From the IMG/VR virus record IMGVR_UViG_2917413769_000003, positions 1 through 40,870 of that record: 40,870 nt of DNA; one strand, written 5' to 3'. Positions 27,125-40,870 of the stretch are shown here, in pieces. The number at the start of each line of letters is the position of its first letter. Position 1 is the stretch's first letter. Both the position numbers and the translations under genes were made by a program. Below the pieces are notes generated by a model. The model made no database searches. It was not told the origin of the DNA and saw only the letters and a program-made list of their open reading frames with translations. Source of the DNA: a virus (lineage: Duplodnaviria; Heunggongvirae; Uroviricota; Caudoviricetes).

Positions 27125-27799
27125 ATGATTGATACCACCGATATCCTTTCTCAAAACATCAAGTACCTGATGGACAAAGCCAAGATAAGCTCGATAACCG
27201 AGCTAGCTCGTCGGTTACAACTGAATCAGCCAACATTACACAGGCTGGTATCTGGGGAAGTGAAAGACCCGAAATACGCAACGCTGAAGCAGATCGCCGA
27301 TTACTTCCGAGTGTCCCCGATTGACCTGGCGGAAAAGAGCCTTCAGGAGATGAGTAACGGAGGCGACGCCAATACAACAACCTACATATCTCTTCGATTT
27401 AATAAGGTGCCGGTCTTGGGAAATACTCAGCTTGGTGTTGGGGGACTTTGGAGCGACACTCCGTATTCGGTGGGCAGCAGCGATGGCTTCATCTACTGGC
27501 CGACAAAAGATGAAGATGCATATGCTCTGAAATGCGTTGGCGACTCAATGATGCCAAGAATTAAAGAGGGGGAATTCGTAATCGTCGAACCCAACCATGA
27601 CTACGCCCCGGGGGATGAAGTTCTTGTCGTTACGCAGGATGGTGAAGTTATGGTTAAAACTTTCCTGTTCGAGCGCGATGGTCTGTTTCACCTGATGTCC
27701 GTAAACGAAGACCACCCACCAATTAGGGTATCACGCGAAAACATCGAGAAAATCCATTACGTGGCTGGAATTGCTAAATCCGCCCTACGCATGTACTAG
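27125..27799 (+). CDS. CI-like repressor (HTH + S24 LexA-type peptidase domain)
   Basis: 224 aa; N-terminal HTH; C-terminal KCVGDSMMPRI (Ser nucleophile) and VMVKTF (Lys). Confidence 0.8.
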   Translation: MIDTTDILSQNIKYLMDKAKISSITELARRLQLNQPTLHRLVSGEVKDPKYATLKQIADYFRVSPIDLAEKSLQEMSNGGDANTTTYISLRFNKVPVLGNTQLGVGGLWSDTPYSVGSSDGFIYWPTKDEDAYALKCVGDSMMPRIKEGEFVIVEPNHDYAPGDEVLVVTQDGEVMVKTFLFERDGLFHLMSVNEDHPPIRVSRENIEKIHYVAGIAKSALRMY

Positions 27800-31525: not shown

Positions 31526-31717
31526 ATGCGAAGGATTTATATCCGGCTGGTCATCACTCTGGCTATCGCCGCGCTCGTTTACGGCTTCCTGGTTCCTTCC
31601 CTGATCTCGATGAAGGACACCGTGGCTGTGCTGTCTGGTTTCGCGCTGGCGCTGACCGCGCCGCCGTGTCTGTTTGCCATTTTCAAAGGCATCTTTATTA
31701 CTAAGGAAAAGAAATGA
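31526..31717 (+). CDS. Small membrane protein (2 TM), partner of SPFH protein
   Basis: 63 aa, two hydrophobic helices; stop overlaps SPFH start (ATGA). Confidence 0.45.
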   Translation: MRRIYIRLVITLAIAALVYGFLVPSLISMKDTVAVLSGFALALTAPPCLFAIFKGIFITKEKK

Positions 31718-32550
31718 AGAAAATTATCTTTGCTGCCGTCGTCGCCCTGTCGGCGCTGGCTCTGTCTGGTTGCGAACGCGCCACCGTTCCCGCGGGTTAC
31801 GTCGGCGTTAAAGTGGACCTCTACGGTGACGAAAAAGGCGTTCAGCAGTCCGAAGTCGGCGTCGGTAAATATTGGCTGACGTGGAACGAAGAGATTTACC
31901 AGTTCCCGACGTTCAACCAGCTGCACAACTATGATCAGCCATTCACCTTCCAGACCGCCGACTCAATGGATGTGAAAGCCCGGATCGGCGTCGAATATTA
32001 TGTCGACCCCGAAAAGGTGACCAAAATATTCCAGACCTACCGCAAAGGGGTGGACGAAATAACCGAGGTCAACCTGCGCCAAAATATCAGTGATGCGCTG
32101 ATCAACCACTCCGGGAAGATGAATATCAACTCGCTGGCAGCCGGAGGCAAAACGCAACTGCTCGAACAGGTTACGCAGGATCTGAAGTCCAAACTTGACC
32201 CCATCGGCATCAGAATCGTGAAGCTGTCATGGGTAAGCGACCTGGACTACCCGCAGAAAGTGAAAGAATCCATCAACGCGAAAATCGAGGCCACACAGCG
32301 CGCGCTGCTGCGCGAGAACGAGATCGCCCAGTCTAAAGCCGAAGCCCAGAAGGCAATCGAGCAGGCACGCGGCGAAGCAGAATCCACCATGTTGCGCGCC
32401 AAAGCTGAATCTGACGCTATTGCCCTTCGCGGTGAAGCGTTACGCAGTAACCCCGAAGTGCTGCAACTGGAAGCGATTAATAAATGGAATGGCACATTGC
32501 CGCAGTATCTGACCAGCGGCGCAGCAACTCCCTTTATCCCCCTGAAGTAA
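31714..32550 (+). CDS. SPFH/band-7 domain lipoprotein (prohibitin/flotillin-like)
   Basis: 278 aa; lipoprotein signal [20 protein letters not shown]; band-7-like core and C-terminal coiled coil ([22 protein letters not shown]...). Confidence 0.65.
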
Positions 32551-35125: not shown

Positions 35126-35341
35126 ATGTCATTCGAAAAACACGACAGTCCGTTGTATTTCCGGTCTGCGCGGGAGGCTATGCGTCTTGAGCAGGCTGGC
35201 GAGTATGACCGGGCGGCGAAGGTATGGGCCAAAGCAAACCGGGAATCACGCAACCCGGTAAACCAGCAATGGAGCGATAACCGCTCTGATTTCTGCATCA
35301 TGCAGAACATCCGCAGCAAACGTAAAGAGGTGCAACTGTGA
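35126..35341 (+). CDS. Hypothetical small protein
   Basis: 71 aa ORF, stop overlaps next gene start. Confidence 0.4.
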   Translation: MSFEKHDSPLYFRSAREAMRLEQAGEYDRAAKVWAKANRESRNPVNQQWSDNRSDFCIMQNIRSKRKEVQL

Positions 35342-36114
35342 TCCCAGGTGAAATTAACACCCTCATCAGCACTGGTGCGCTCTTTGTATCAAACCACAGC
35401 GGCGGAAAAGACAGTCAGGTGATGTTGATTAAACTCCTTGAGATTGTTCCCACTGCGCAGCTTATCGTTGTGCACGCATCGCTCGGTGTTATTGAGTGGC
35501 CAGGTGCACTGGAACTTGCTGAAACTCAGGCTGCAGGCGCGGGTCTGCCGTTCATCGTGGCTCGAGCCAGCAAGACCTTCTTCGAAATGGTAGAACGTCG
35601 CTTTGAGAATCGTCCAGAAGTTCCCAGTTGGCCATCCTCCAGCACCCGACAATGTACCAGTGACCTGAAGCGCGGCCCCATCCAACGCGAGGTACGCCGG
35701 TATGCAAAAGCCAACGGGTTTAAAACCATCGTTAACTGCCTCGGGCTGCGTGCCCAAGAATCACCTGGCCGAGCTAAGCGCCAGGTGTTCAGCAAAATGG
35801 GGATCAGCAACTCAGTTAATACCTGGTACGAATGGCTCCCAGTTCACGAACTGCTTACCGAGGAAGTATTCGCCACCATTCGAATGACTGGACAAGAGCC
35901 GCACTACGCCTACGCTCTGGGCAATGAGCGATTAAGTTGTGTGTTCTGCATCATGGCCAGCCGTAACGATATGGTTAACGGCGCCCGGCATAACCCACCC
36001 TTGCTGGAGGAATACGCAGACCTAGAGGCTAAGACTGGGTACACCATGCATATGAGCCGGATCCCCATTCGAGTGCTGGCGGCTGACGACGAAAACAAGG
36101 TACATGCAGCATGA
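35338..36114 (+). CDS. PAPS reductase-like PP-loop ATPase (phage PAPS reductase / DndC-like family)
   Basis: 258 aa; GTG start; PP-loop SGGKDS near N-terminus; C-terminal Cys pair (CVFC). Confidence 0.7.
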   Translation: MIPGEINTLISTGALFVSNHSGGKDSQVMLIKLLEIVPTAQLIVVHASLGVIEWPGALELAETQAAGAGLPFIVARASKTFFEMVERRFENRPEVPSWPSSSTRQCTSDLKRGPIQREVRRYAKANGFKTIVNCLGLRAQESPGRAKRQVFSKMGISNSVNTWYEWLPVHELLTEEVFATIRMTGQEPHYAYALGNERLSCVFCIMASRNDMVNGARHNPPLLEEYADLEAKTGYTMHMSRIPIRVLAADDENKVHAA

Positions 36115-36392
36115 CCTACGAGCGTGAAAGCACTATCGAAAAGCACCTCGTCGCCGAAGTGAAAAAGGCTGGCGGGCTGGCTTATAAATTCGTGTCGCCT
36201 GGCCGCCGCTCGGTACCAGATCGCATTGTGCTGTTACCCGGCGGCCGTCTCGTCTTTGTCGAATGCAAAGCACCTGGCAAACCACCACGCGCCGACCAGC
36301 TGCGCGAGCACGAACGGCTGCGCGCACTGGGCTTTTGCGTGGTGGTGCTGGATAGCAAAGACCTTTCGCAAGTGCTATCTCTAGCGCCCTAA
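36111..36392 (+). CDS. VRR-NUC domain nuclease
   Basis: 93 aa; PD-(D/E)XK core PDRIVLL...FVECKAPG; start overlaps previous stop. Confidence 0.7.
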   Translation: MTYERESTIEKHLVAEVKKAGGLAYKFVSPGRRSVPDRIVLLPGGRLVFVECKAPGKPPRADQLREHERLRALGFCVVVLDSKDLSQVLSLAP

Positions 36393-37307
36393 CTGAGGGT
36401 TGCGGAAGTTGTCAGCAATTCGCATCGCATCAGCTCTCCCGCCGGGCAGCATCCCCGCCTTCGTCAGGATGTATTTAGGGAACTTGGTGGGCAAATACTC
36501 ATGACGGAACCAACGACGAAATTCTGGCAACGCTTCGTTGGGATAAGCGTTAATCATCTGAGGATTCGAAGTAGATTGATTAAAGTCATCCGGATAGTGA
36601 TGCGCACATTGAACGCGATCACCGAACTGACGTGAGAGGCCGTTTGACGTCCAGTGACGCCCCCAGCATGAACCGACGCTGATATCAGGCACGGTATACA
36701 TATTCACCGCAAGACCAGCGGTAATCAGGTCAACCATTAAACCCGCAATTTCGTTAAAAATGATAAAGTGGCCGTCGGGTACCGTGCCGGTACTTTGGAT
36801 AATGGAAACCCGCTGATGATAAGGCCCCCAAGGGTCTTCTGGCTGGTATCGCAACGCGCCATAAATATAATCCCGAAGCCCGACTCGGGCTAATTCGCGA
36901 TAGTATTGTTGCGCGGTTGAATTTGATGCTGCTTGCGATTCAAAAGCATAAAACTCGAGCAGAGCCATACACACAATATCAGGGAATGCGTAATGTACAG
37001 AGCCTGCACGCATAACCGAGATAAATAGCACAGGGTCTGTATAACCGGCTTGCTGAAGATATGTGCTAATAAACTCCATTCGCCCACGAGTAAAAACCCC
37101 GCTCTGGAAGCACTGAGCGTATTCGTTTGCGATGTCTGCAATGTTTGTGCGGTTGACGCCGCAGATTCTTGCGAGTCCGTTCTGAGTAAGGTACGGAATA
37201 CCGTTCTCCAAAACACCCATTTCAATATCGTTGAAAACACCTTCCTGCCTAACTCCAAGATCTAATACAGCAGGGGGTGTGGGCTGAGGCTGATTCTGTG
37301 TAGTCAT
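36381..37307 (-). CDS. Hypothetical protein, opposite-strand low-GC insert (moron-like)
   Basis: 308 aa on the minus strand inside a plus-strand operon; visibly lower GC than flanks; 3' end overlaps VRR-NUC 3' end by 12 nt. Confidence 0.5.
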   Translation of the reverse strand: MTTQNQPQPTPPAVLDLGVRQEGVFNDIEMGVLENGIPYLTQNGLARICGVNRTNIADIANEYAQCFQSGVFTRGRMEFISTYLQQAGYTDPVLFISVMRAGSVHYAFPDIVCMALLEFYAFESQAASNSTAQQYYRELARVGLRDYIYGALRYQPEDPWGPYHQRVSIIQSTGTVPDGHFIIFNEIAGLMVDLITAGLAVNMYTVPDISVGSCWGRHWTSNGLSRQFGDRVQCAHHYPDDFNQSTSNPQMINAYPNEALPEFRRWFRHEYLPTKFPKYILTKAGMLPGGRADAMRIADNFRNPQLGR

Positions 37308-37409
37308 CTATCTGATTTCCTTATTTTTATACCCTGAGGCTGCGCCTTAGGAATTATCTTAACCCCCTTATTTATACTCCAACTTGCAATTTTTTGCGAG
37401 GTACTAACT

Positions 37410-38804
37410 TTGAGTAAAATCTTCACCCCCCGCCCCTACCAAAATCTCATTATCAACCACGAAATTGACTCTCTGCGCTGCAACATCTGGGCGGGCATGG
37501 GCATGGGTAAAACCGTGGCAACACTCACCACTCTGGAAGATCTCTTCATGGCGGGATCGGAGACGCAGCCCGCGCTGGTTCTCGCGCCGCTGCGCGTGGC
37601 AGCCAGCACCTGGCCGGATGAAGCGGTGAAATGGGGGCATCTGCGCAATATCGAGGTGCAGCCGATTGTCGGTAACGCCAAAGCACGCTCGGCGGCGCTA
37701 GCGAACAGCAACGCAAGCGTGTTCACCATCAACTACGACAATTTGGTCTGGCTGGTGGAAGAGCTGGGCGGCCGCTGGCCGTTCGGTACCGTCATCCCGG
37801 ACGAAAGCACCCGGCTGAAATCCTTCCGGCTGCGTGGGGGTGGCAAGCGTGCAGCGGCACTGGGCAAAGTGGCGCATAAGCATATCCGGCGCTGGATGAA
37901 TCTCACCGGTACGCCAGCGCCAAACGGTCTGGTGGATTTGTGGGGGCAGGCGTGGTTTGTCGACCAGGGGCAGCGCCTCGGACGCACTTACGGCGCGTTT
38001 ACCTCCCGCTGGTTCAACTCAATACAGTTTCCGGGGCAGAGCTGGACGAAGCTGGAGCCATTCGCCCATTCGCAGGACGAGATACAGCGAGCGCTGGCCG
38101 ACGTCACTATCTCACTGGACGCTGCCGACTGGTTCGACATCAAAGAGCCAATCCATAACGTGATCCGCGTGGGCATGCCGCCGAAGGCCCGTCAGCAGTA
38201 TCGCGAGATGGAAAAGGAAATGTTCCTTGAGCTCAACGGCGAGGGCATCGAAGCGCCGAATGCCGCGGCAAAAACAGTGAAGTGCCTGCAAATTGCCAGC
38301 GGCGCGGTGTACACCGACGACGCCGGGAGCTGGTCAGAACTGCACGACGCGAAGCTGCAGGCGCTGGACAGCATACTCACCGAAGCAGCTGGCGCACCGG
38401 TGCTGGTGGCCTACCACTGGAAGCACGATCTGGAGCGCCTGCTTAAAGCGTTCCCTAAAGGTCGCCATCTCGACCAGGATCCGCAGACGCTGCGCGACTG
38501 GAACGCCGGGGAAATCCCGGTGCTGTTCGCGCATCCCGCCAGCGCAGGTCACGGTCTGAACATGCAGGACGGCGGCAACATACTGGTGTTTTTCTCGCAC
38601 TGGTGGGATCTGGAGCAGTACCAGCAAATCATCGAACGCATTGGGCCAACCCGGCAGATTCAGGCCGGACACAACCGCCCGGTGTTCATTCACCACATCA
38701 TCGCTGCCGACACTATGGACGACATGGTGATGGAGCGGATGAACTCAAAACGAACAGTGCAGGACATCCTGCTCGATGCCATGAAGAAGAGAGGTATAGC
38801 ATGA
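37410..38804 (+). CDS. SNF2-family helicase (phage-type)
   Basis: 464 aa; TTG start with AGGT RBS; motifs RPYQ, GMGKT (Walker A), DEST (DExx box). Confidence 0.8.
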   Translation: MSKIFTPRPYQNLIINHEIDSLRCNIWAGMGMGKTVATLTTLEDLFMAGSETQPALVLAPLRVAASTWPDEAVKWGHLRNIEVQPIVGNAKARSAALANSNASVFTINYDNLVWLVEELGGRWPFGTVIPDESTRLKSFRLRGGGKRAAALGKVAHKHIRRWMNLTGTPAPNGLVDLWGQAWFVDQGQRLGRTYGAFTSRWFNSIQFPGQSWTKLEPFAHSQDEIQRALADVTISLDAADWFDIKEPIHNVIRVGMPPKARQQYREMEKEMFLELNGEGIEAPNAAAKTVKCLQIASGAVYTDDAGSWSELHDAKLQALDSILTEAAGAPVLVAYHWKHDLERLLKAFPKGRHLDQDPQTLRDWNAGEIPVLFAHPASAGHGLNMQDGGNILVFFSHWWDLEQYQQIIERIGPTRQIQAGHNRPVFIHHIIAADTMDDMVMERMNSKRTVQDILLDAMKKRGIA

Positions 38805-39001
38805 GCGAGCAACCCGACGATCTGCTCACCCCGGACGAGGTATGCCAGAAGCTGGGCATAACCCAGAAGACGTTATGCGACTGGAATATAAAGCACCGGC
38901 ATCGCGCCGTACTGGCCCCCATCCGTTTCAGCGCGAAAGTGGTTCGCTATGAGCGCCGTAACGTCGACGCCTTCATCCAGAAATGCCGCAGCCAGTATTA
39001 A
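38801..39001 (+). CDS. Excisionase / AlpA-like DNA-binding protein
   Basis: 66 aa in-frame part of ORF 38603..39001; ATG 38801 overlaps SNF2 stop; LLTPDEVCQKLGITQKTLCDW HTH; adjacent to integrase. Confidence 0.55.
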   Translation: MSEQPDDLLTPDEVCQKLGITQKTLCDWNIKHRHRAVLAPIRFSAKVVRYERRNVDAFIQKCRSQY

Positions 39002-40401
39002 CCCCGTCGCCGTAACAGCGCAGCCTGCGCGAGTATGCTCCGTTCGTGAGCCTCGAAGGCTTCGCGCTTCAACGCAATCTCTTCCTGCAAAATCTCGTCT
39101 GAAAAGTCGTAATGTTCTGCCATTGGGTCATCTGACTTGCTGGAGTGATGAAGGCACAGGAGGCTTATTTCCCTTCGATCTGATCGGGAATAACCTCTTT
39201 CCTTCATCAGGGCGATAACGTTGCTCTTAAGGAATTTACGGCACATCGTATTAAATGCCCCCTCTTTCCCTTTAATAGTCCCGTCATGCTTCATGCCTTT
39301 AACAGCGCCTTCCGGGCTATAGGTTTTCACCAGTTTATCCAGCGATCTTTTTGAAAATGGCTGCATTGGGTCACGCGGCTGCAGGAATACAAAATCGTTA
39401 TTGCACTCAGGAACTGAATCACGCCAGGCTTTCTGCTCGTCGATAATCCGCTGGATCTCTGGCGTTATTGGCAAGCGGAAAGCCTTTTGTGTTTTCATGG
39501 CCCCGCGCATACCGATAACTCCTTCCGGATAAACAATTTCGCCAGCATCTTCATTAATGTAATCCCAACGCAGGTTATGAACGTTAATCGGTCGAACGCC
39601 GGTAATAATCATATAGCGAACGGCGTTTTTCTGCTGTATTGAGGTACAGGCGGCCACGTTGAGCCAGAGCCGGGCGATGGATTCAATATCGGTAAAAAGT
39701 CGTGTCGGGGTGGGTTTCTGTACGCGGGAGGAAACATAATCGTCGGGCAGGCTGGCGGCAATGTTGCGGCCATTGCAAAGAGTGGGAGAGCAAAACTTCC
39801 AGAACCGACGAAGCTCGGCAAACAACTCCAGGGCGTTATTGTTCGAGCGAGTGGCGATCCATTCGTCCAGCACTTCCACCAGCCGAGGGTATGTCACGTC
39901 GCTGAACACTTCGCGCTCGCCGAACGTTGCTTTAATCCGGTCGATACGCACCCCGTAGGTGGTGAAACTGTCCGGGCTCAGCTTCTGCCGGGCCACTTTG
40001 GCTTTAAGGTCATCCCGGTACATTTCCAGCGCAGCATGGACGGACTCGGCTCGCAGGCCACCTTCGGCCATACCTGACGCCTTCTCGCGCGCCAGCTGAA
40101 TTGCGAGCTCCGGCCATTCGCCGAGCTTTTTACCTTTGAGCCCCATCTTTTTGGGAAACTCGGCGTAAAATGTAACCTTACCTGCTTTGCTGAAATCGAT
40201 GCGGAGATAGTTCTCTTTTTCGTATTTGGAACGGCGAGCCACGCCGGAAGCAGCGAGGATGGTTTTGGCGGCAGCAACACAGATTTTCATGTGTGCGCTG
40301 GTATAGGGAGGTTTACAGGCGTCCCACTTTTCAGACGCGGCTAAAACATCGTCATTATTGGGGCTATCCGGTTTATGTGTTACAGTGCGCGGCATTCTCA
40401 A
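38998..40401 (-). CDS. Tyrosine integrase
   Basis: 467 aa; C-terminal catalytic region with TGVRP (box I Arg) and LLCLHHSS...EHY (His/Tyr); at prophage end next to host gene. Confidence 0.8.
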   Translation of the reverse strand: MRMPRTVTHKPDSPNNDDVLAASEKWDACKPPYTSAHMKICVAAAKTILAASGVARRSKYEKENYLRIDFSKAGKVTFYAEFPKKMGLKGKKLGEWPELAIQLAREKASGMAEGGLRAESVHAALEMYRDDLKAKVARQKLSPDSFTTYGVRIDRIKATFGEREVFSDVTYPRLVEVLDEWIATRSNNNALELFAELRRFWKFCSPTLCNGRNIAASLPDDYVSSRVQKPTPTRLFTDIESIARLWLNVAACTSIQQKNAVRYMIITGVRPINVHNLRWDYINEDAGEIVYPEGVIGMRGAMKTQKAFRLPITPEIQRIIDEQKAWRDSVPECNNDFVFLQPRDPMQPFSKRSLDKLVKTYSPEGAVKGMKHDGTIKGKEGAFNTMCRKFLKSNVIALMKERGYSRSDRREISLLCLHHSSKSDDPMAEHYDFSDEILQEEIALKREAFEAHERSILAQAALLRRRG

Positions 40402-40600
40402 TCCTTATCTGCGTAAGCGCAGAAAACAAGCTCACACATGCAGGTCTTTACTACGGGACAAAATGCAATGTGTTGCGGTTTTGTGTTACTGGATTGAGTT
40501 TATCAGCGTTAAATACACTGGATCAACATACAGTAAGTTAATAATAGTGAAGAATGCGAATATGTCATAACTTACTGATTTCAAACTGCTTTAATGGTAA

Positions 40601-40870
<270 letters not shown>

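Follow-up and report, generated by a model that had tools for sequence, protein, structure and literature searches.

A BstA-family abortive-infection gene carried as exchangeable cargo between the VRR-NUC and SNF2 genes of a non-lambdoid prophage, with a candidate aba site across its start codon

The window analysed in the present study, a stretch of 40,870 nucleotides from a Caudoviricetes record of IMG/VR (IMGVR_UViG_2917413769_000003), contains a lone minus-strand gene inside a plus-strand early operon, which raises the question of what this gene encodes and whether it belongs to the replication module around it or is carried there as cargo. An earlier note on the same DNA had described a minus-strand 308-aa ORF between VRR-NUC and SNF2 genes, with a 12-nt convergent overlap with the former, a lower GC content than its flanks and an AT-rich upstream region of its own, and had suggested acquired abortive-infection, defence or anti-defence cargo. 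The ORF list and the profile matches of both neighbours give the following arrangement, in which the gene is named bstA on the evidence presented below:

36111..36392, plus strand: VRR-NUC/PDDEXK nuclease, 93 aa, left flank of the VRR-NUC/SNF2 slot
36381..37307, minus strand: bstA coding sequence from the ORF list, 308 aa plus stop codon, ATG start
37308..37409: divergent intergenic region between bstA and SNF2, 102 bp, GC 0.373
37410..38804, plus strand: SNF2-family helicase (Pfam E=5e-11), right flank of the slot

The left-flank nuclease matches Pfam VRR_NUC at only E=0.058, with PHROG 93 ‘endonuclease’ matched at E=3.5e-31 and its homologues annotated as VRR-NUC/PDDEXK in RefSeq. Its convergent overlap with bstA is exactly 12 nt (36381-36392). 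The GC content of bstA is 0.495 (GC3 0.495), compared with 0.585 and 0.599 for the flanking genes (GC3 0.62 and 0.74), and just 5.4% of the 927-bp windows in the prophage have a GC content as low. The overlap, the composition and the AT-rich spacer were all as the earlier note had described them.

Based on profile matches, the 308-aa protein is clearly a full-length member of the known BstA abortive-infection family. The PADLOC BstA model (PDLC02356) aligns to residues 13-304 over model positions 7-290 of 292 (E=4.6e-113), PHROG 6287 ‘BstA abortive infection system, replication inhibitor’ matches at E=6e-105, and BLASTP aligns residues 28-306 with BstA of the Salmonella prophage BTP1 at 39% identity (E=1e-69). 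All invariant columns of an alignment of 63 homologues are present in the protein, and PF26567 (BstA_C) is carried by every one of the best 120 of 632 homologues from a large protein database. The nearest protein-database homologue among the matches listed is 92% identical, and an IMG/VR contig (L083) holds a copy with 99% amino acid identity. The earlier note had recognised no motif, which holds for the Pfam and NCBIfam scans of the ORF, neither of which returned a family (Pfam E<=1) though PF26567 is precomputed on homologues; as a description of the protein it is superseded by the PADLOC and PHROG matches to BstA over its full length. That the gene would belong to an already characterised family was not foreseen in that note. 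On its own, it is an ordinary, already-named defence gene.

The biology of this family has been described by Owen et al. 2021 (PMC8585504). BstA is made in lysogens, moves to the replicating DNA of an infecting phage and stops phage DNA replication; the infected cell dies and no progeny are released, which protects the population and constitutes abortive infection. The carrier prophage escapes its own BstA by means of aba, a site that acts as DNA, needs high copy number and is cognate to its own BstA (PMC8585504).

An AlphaFold model of the protein from the window was confident (pLDDT 85.9, pTM 0.72) and indicates two domains:

36843..37265, minus strand: predicted N-terminal KilA-N-like DNA-binding domain, residues ~15-155
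36384..36842, minus strand: C-terminal BstA_C domain, residues ~156-308

From this model we assign with confidence a two-domain layout with a KilA-N/Bro-N/APSES-like N-terminal domain. A structure search of BFVD returned antirepressor, Bro-N and KilA proteins. In the PDB, a sequence-profile search returned nothing and Foldseek nothing significant, so that neither search gave a convincing solved relative for the C-terminal half. The predicted layout agrees with the published KilA-N-like domain followed by a second domain (PMC8585504).

The same fold admits another reading, namely that the gene encodes a KilA-N/Bro-N-type regulator (an antirepressor or transcription factor) which is related to BstA by descent but plays no part in defence here. 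In its favour are the resemblance of the N-terminal fold to the DNA-binding domains of KilA-N, Bro-N, APSES and antirepressor proteins, and a weak additional match to the PADLOC HTH model (E=3.5e-10). However, homology to BstA extends over the full length and includes the BstA-specific C-terminal domain, and the BTP1, E. coli and Klebsiella BstA proteins, which are only ~40-48% identical to one another, all three gave protection (PMC8585504). Pfam KilA-N (PF04383) does not match the ORF, the resemblance being at the level of fold only. We consider a regulator without a defence role very unlikely, and the genomic setting of bstA bears on it further.

The gene is encoded on a prophage, with an integrase, a repressor, a PrimPol-VapE primase, structural genes and a replication module consisting of DUF2800, an Enc34-type SSB, PolA, VRR-NUC and SNF2. 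The features relevant to its position are:

27125..27799, strand opposite to bstA: CI/LexA-like (S24/HTH) repressor
~36365..37384: cargo segment, ~1.02 kb, delimited by alignment with the empty-slot prophage of E. coli STEC383 and three other slot variants
38998..40401: integrase, at the prophage end beside host yfhL
40610: host yfhL

Placement of bstA downstream of the prophage repressor has been called strikingly conserved, being frequent rather than obligatory (PMC8585504). An E. coli pan-genome survey of >1,300 strains found bstA in no prophages other than lambda-like ones at the tRNA-Arg hotspot. In the window it lies ~9 kb from the repressor, not downstream of it, and is flanked by VRR-NUC and SNF2. 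BstA evidently travels beyond the lambdoid cI-N slot, into a different prophage lineage and a slot in the replication module.

Homologous prophages were aligned across the VRR-NUC/SNF2 junction. In the related prophage of STEC383, which is integrated at another position in the chromosome, the slot is empty and the two genes, which the earlier note had expected to adjoin elsewhere, overlap by 4 bp; the last codons of VRR-NUC in the window are encoded inside the cargo segment. E. coli prophages at the yfhL site hold bstA in the junction in 11 genomes (~80-81% DNA identity), and in others a 243-aa or a 104-aa hypothetical gene. The slot was surveyed in 80 IMG/VR phages with an SNF2 protein at least 94% identical to that of the window. 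Between the VRR-NUC match and SNF2 there were ~0 to 2200 bp, and more than 35 different largest ORFs were found on either strand, many with hydrophobic N-termini; only 5 of the 80 phages had bstA.

A third account, that the protein is a conserved replication or recombination accessory acting with VRR-NUC and SNF2, draws on the recurrence of the VRR-NUC/bstA/SNF2 order in the 11 E. coli genomes, in Yersinia and in metagenomic prophages. The survey argues against it, given that so few phages with a near-identical SNF2 carry the gene, as do the translational coupling of VRR-NUC and SNF2 in STEC383 with nothing between them and the location of the same protein family beside cI in lambdoid phages whose replication genes are unrelated. 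We find this account scarcely credible. The same variability counts against a regulator, since a gene required by the phage would not occupy a slot that is empty or differently filled in sister phages. Because of this turnover we regard bstA as exchangeable cargo, not a conserved accessory: that a hypervariable slot of the replication module carries it as swappable cargo is supported. Together with BstA family membership, the empty or otherwise filled slots of relatives bear out the suggestion of acquired defence-type cargo made in the earlier note. The finding that this note had named as counting against its suggestion, presence of the gene in the same position in every homologous prophage as a conserved accessory, is not what the relatives show. 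Neighbouring slots carry TIR, SIR2 and DUF4145 genes. With these neighbours and its own content, which amounts to dozens of small uncharacterised genes, many of them membrane-like, the VRR-NUC/SNF2 slot is a practical ground for mining new defence genes.

The aba of BTP1 is 63 bp long and comprises 29 bp upstream of bstA and the first 34 bp of its coding sequence; its terminal CCCGCC direct repeats are essential, and a single-base change in either repeat abolishes function (PMC8585504). Cognate aba activity was also shown by experiment for the E. coli (NCTC10963 bstA-Ec) and Klebsiella loci, where the sites are unmapped, and the mechanism of aba is described as an open question (PMC8585504). 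In the window, a segment with the position and architecture of the BTP1 aba straddles the start codon:

37278..37342, minus strand: candidate cognate aba, 65 bp
37334..37342, minus strand: upstream repeat CAGCCTCAG, beginning 35 nt before the ATG
37313..37331, minus strand: central A/T-rich spacer with ribosome-binding site, TATAAAAATAAGGAAATCA
37284..37292, minus strand: downstream repeat CAGCCTCAG, coding nt 16-24 (codons 6-8), 50 bp from the upstream copy
37278..37286, minus strand: downstream copy in the canonical register, CAGCCCACA, whose CAGCC lies 56 bp from the upstream CAGCC

The minus strand of the region reads gcgCAGCCTCAGggtataaaaataaggaaatcagatagATGactacacagaatCAGCCTCAGCCCACAcccc. 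By analogy of architecture, 37278-37342 is a candidate for the cognate aba, with two copies of CAGCCTCAG at 50 bp and two of CAGCC at 56 bp; in the canonical register the match covers few nucleotides, and the upstream copy has changed compared with that of close relatives. Within the restricted search space, 0.67% of 29,213 windows drawn at random from the same loci contained an exact repeat of at least 9 nt. The spacer TATAAAAATAAGGAAATCA is similar to the central part of the BTP1 aba (AACAAGGAAAATCAA) and differs very little from that of the BstA-Ec-type locus, the proteins of which are just 34% identical to the one studied here. Folding of the single-stranded DNA gave no stable structure for either the candidate (z=+1.0) or the BTP1 aba (z=+1.4), and an Rfam scan of 35900-37800 gave no match, both of which are consistent with a duplex protein-binding site and not a hairpin. 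An imperfect hairpin around the upstream repeat (37333-37351) was dropped, being not conserved in relatives. The earlier note had recorded the AT-rich upstream region without foreseeing that, with the first codons of the gene, it probably forms an aba.

Repeat pairs in the subclade of the window place the altered upstream copy in context. L083 has the pair AGCCCTCA / AGCCCACA at 57 bp, and most close relatives (L083, L087 and L089) share an upstream (T)AGCCCTCA-GGGT and a downstream (C)AGCCC[A/G]CA-CCCC at the same spacing. The L083-type upstream copy, GTAGCCCTCAGGG, is also found in L084 and L085, where the downstream copy is AACCCACA. Other members have GGTTACA at 57 bp (L081), AACCC[a/g]CA at 57 bp (L080) and AGCTCAC at 56 bp (L079). 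Canonical pairs in this subclade are short, with runs of 5 + 2 nt. The window differs from L083, L084, L085 and L089 exactly inside the upstream repeat (GCGCAGCC-TCAGGG versus GCGTAGCCCTCAGGG); relative to the upstream copy of L083, a T has become C and one C has been lost in a 1-nt deletion. After this substitution and deletion, what remains of the canonical pair of 5 + 2 nt at 57 bp is CAGCC at 56 bp, and the same two changes created the perfect 9-mer pair at the atypical spacing of 50 bp. Shorter CCTCAG/CTCAG pairs at 50 bp are present in 8 of the 10 close relatives examined, and in L073 both copies show a concerted G to A change (CAACC(C)TCAG and CAACCTCAG).

Since single-base changes in the BTP1 repeats abolish aba function, self-immunity in the window may be altered or lost. 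Taken to its conclusion, this would mean a genuine BstA with a degraded self-immunity site, in which the deletion and substitution broke aba and the prophage either aborts its own lytic replication, as a domesticated defence island, or escapes by other means. The location of the differences, precisely in the upstream repeat, the shortened canonical match and the published sensitivity of aba to single-base changes (PMC8585504) all point in this direction. Against these stand the perfect 9-nt repeat at 50 bp that the same change produced, which is rare by chance, the CCTCAG/CTCAG pairs at this spacing in most of the close relatives, the otherwise complete appearance of the prophage in the window, and the length of the BTP1 repeats themselves, which are just 6-7 nt. 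A broken aba is in our assessment unlikely, and we favour a BstA system with 37278-37342 as its candidate aba. For this allele, the functional register (50 versus 56/57 bp) and the integrity of self-immunity are the main uncertainty.

Whether paired repeats of this kind are general to bstA was examined in loci drawn from GTDB genomes, IMG/VR, E. coli genomes and phage records. The best direct repeat was sought from -150 to +20 of an anchor at spacings of 30-90 bp, with the conserved residue-15 codon as anchor, since many loci lack an unambiguous start-codon call. Of 107 dereplicated loci, 53 had their best repeat at a spacing of 56 or 57 bp, a result seen in 2.7% of 3,913 random windows (p=2.5e-53 in a binomial test, with kinship handled by dereplication alone), and in a smaller set it was 33 of 71 dereplicated loci (p=5e-28); about half of bstA loci have no clear 56/57-bp repeat. 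Relative to the anchor, the median start of the first copy is -81.5 nt. Copies match each other (local score >=7) in 49.5% of comparisons within a locus versus 2.5% between loci, the mean match score being 6.84 versus 3.20 for permuted pairs (sd 0.13, maximum 3.70 in 2,000 permutations). The repeat sequence varies from locus to locus, examples being TAACTCCGGCCACCCC, CACCCGGCACCCCC, GCCCGCCACCC, TTTGGTCACCA and AACAAAAATATCGCGGG, so the repeats are locus-specific, as expected of a cognate determinant.

The published BTP1 aba, the BstA-Ec-type locus and a Kp-like locus fit this pattern. The BTP1 aba has CCCGCCA at 56 bp, and the BstA-Ec-type locus, the upstream sequence of which matches the BstA-Ec cloning primer of the authors, has ATCCCT[a/g]CA at 57 bp. 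The Kp52.145 locus was represented by a proxy, a homologue from a Klebsiella phage with 48% identity to BTP1 BstA, which has GGTCA at 57 bp. No mention of repeats in homologues was found in the searched text and supplements of PMC8585504 or in the later literature searched. This computational result suggests that the 56/57-bp repeat architecture is conserved and locus-specific. We further propose, as an idea that we hold to be evenly poised between right and wrong, that the locus-specific 56/57-bp pairs, with one copy before the ribosome-binding site and the other at codons ~6-10, are general specificity determinants of aba across the family, operator-like and read by the KilA-N-like domain, and that the 50-bp allele of the window would be a natural spacing or specificity variant. 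If true, it would be possible to predict the cognate aba of any BstA from sequence, and the 56/57-bp pair would be a concrete, testable answer to the open question of aba mechanism and cognacy.

With regard to expression, a sigma-70 promoter scan of 36000-37700 returned no site. Two TATAAA motifs (37371-37376 and 37326-37331) were considered as promoters and not adopted, as neither has a convincing -35. A block at ~37381-37400 is strongly conserved among close relatives and may serve SNF2 translation instead of a bstA promoter. Because bstA stands alone and antisense to the early operon, we infer that it has a promoter of its own in 37308-37409.

Taken together, we are rather confident that this is the gene for an abortive-infection protein of the BstA family, a piece of exchangeable cargo that sits between VRR-NUC and SNF2 in a non-lambdoid prophage beside yfhL, with 37278-37342 as its candidate aba. 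As in its homologues, BstA would be made in the lysogen, presumably from a promoter within the 102-bp spacer, and upon infection by an unrelated phage would gather at the replicating DNA of that phage and block its replication. The KilA-N-like domain would recognise DNA, and the repeat upstream of the ribosome-binding site with its partner in codons 6-10 would form an operator-like site. Replication of the prophage itself would then supply many copies of aba, neutralising BstA and preventing self-abortion; in the simplest model, aba titrates the DNA-binding domain. More speculatively, read-through from the early operon, antisense to bstA, might lower its expression during lytic growth, and it is a possibility that the antisense position thereby adds a layer of self-immunity by transcriptional interference.

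Compared with known systems, the protein of the window is most readily set beside BstA of BTP1, which has equal length, the same two-domain layout, 39% identity and the conserved residues. Both are prophage-borne single-gene systems, and in both an A/T-rich AAGGAAA(A)TCA stretch and the start codon lie between direct repeats ~56 bp apart. They differ in that the BTP1 gene lies downstream of cI and co-oriented with it, whereas that of the window is a lone antisense gene in a replication module; in the repeats, which are CCCGCC at 56 bp in BTP1 and CAGCC(TCAG) in the window, with the best match at 50 bp; and in the carrier phage, which unlike BTP1 is not lambdoid or P22-like. The BstA-Ec type, from the NCTC10963 / 2012C-4431 lambdoid prophage, has a central spacer (ATAAAAATAAGGAAATCA) nearly identical to that of the window and a repeat pair that also straddles the ATG (ATCCCT[a/g]CA, 57 bp), but its protein is only 34% identical and its gene lies between a LexA-family repressor and N. 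KilA-N/Bro-N/APSES proteins have an N-terminal fold similar to that of BstA, from which they differ in that BstA has no Pfam KilA-N match and a C-terminal domain specific to its own family. Finally, lambda RexAB and other prophage ‘moron’ Abi genes are, like bstA, lysogen-expressed cargo that aborts infection by other phages and lies in a recombination-prone slot flanked by conserved genes. They have no sequence or fold relation to BstA; RexAB consists of two proteins and depolarises the membrane, and whereas the RexAB-type hotspot lies in the immunity region, that of the present bstA lies inside the replication operon.

The interval between the VRR-NUC and SNF2 matches was examined in 80 phages with near-identical SNF2 (loci L165-L244), in which it accommodates over 35 distinct uncharacterised ORFs. 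Many are opposite-strand ORFs whose N-termini are hydrophobic (e.g., MDIWDFGKLFVFVLFVVPGFISIKV), and we regard the slot ORFs as candidate superinfection-exclusion or Abi genes of unknown types. At the SNF2 side of the slot, the window carries the following block:

about 37381-37409, plus strand, near-invariant block upstream of SNF2 (CTTGCAATTTTTTGCGAGGTAC..)

Among close bstA-carrying relatives this block varies hardly at all, and it resembles a stretch of the empty-slot phage (GCAAAAATCTGGAGGGGAT) made up of the VRR-NUC 3' end and the SNF2 ribosome-binding site. It looks as if the junction sequence was kept or duplicated upon cargo acquisition.

Two further genes of the window were noted:

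31714-32550, plus strand, SPFH/Band-7 domain protein (Pfam, E=1e-24; PHROG 200 'lipoprotein')
35338-36114, plus strand, PAPS-reductase-fold protein of 258 aa, early operon

The SPFH/Band-7 gene is flanked by the SSB and DNA polymerase genes, an interval that is a second cargo slot because relatives fill it with different genes, namely DUF4145 (PD-T7-4-like), Nmad5 or small hypothetical genes. The PAPS-reductase-fold protein matches the PADLOC models BrxP (E=8e-19), SspD and DndC and, among PHROG families, the 'moron' family 424. Its gene may represent DNA-modification or anti-restriction cargo. In relatives its place, or a nearby one, is taken by Nmad5, DUF4406 or a DNA methylase.

The replication module that carries bstA in the window has neighbouring slots in which sister prophages bear other defence-type genes (L077 4803-6326, L004 2952-3713, L079 4460-5221, L073 7622-8320 and L080 3933-4946). 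The set comprises a SIR2 protein (PADLOC PDC-S25, E=6e-159), TIR-domain proteins, a DUF4145/PD-T7-4-like protein and a DNA methylase.

Measured in 927-bp windows, GC within the prophage is lowest at about 3000-3800 (down to 0.425). This stretch lies in the minus-strand late/structural region and may mark another exchanged module, such as a tail-fibre or host-range gene. GC drops to 0.37 within 40350-40870, between the integrase and a host gene:

40610-40870, host yfhL, 4Fe-4S ferredoxin

The low-GC region is presumably that of the attachment site. The yfhL product differs by 2 aa from E. coli YfhL, and E. coli relatives share this integration site, adjoining shoB and acpS.

The longest of the aba-like repeats seen was the 17-nt AACAAAAATATCGCGGG in the IMG/VR locus L156, which is present twice, exactly 57 bp apart, at about -96 from the residue-15 codon, in a locus whose BstA shares only 41% protein identity with that of the window.
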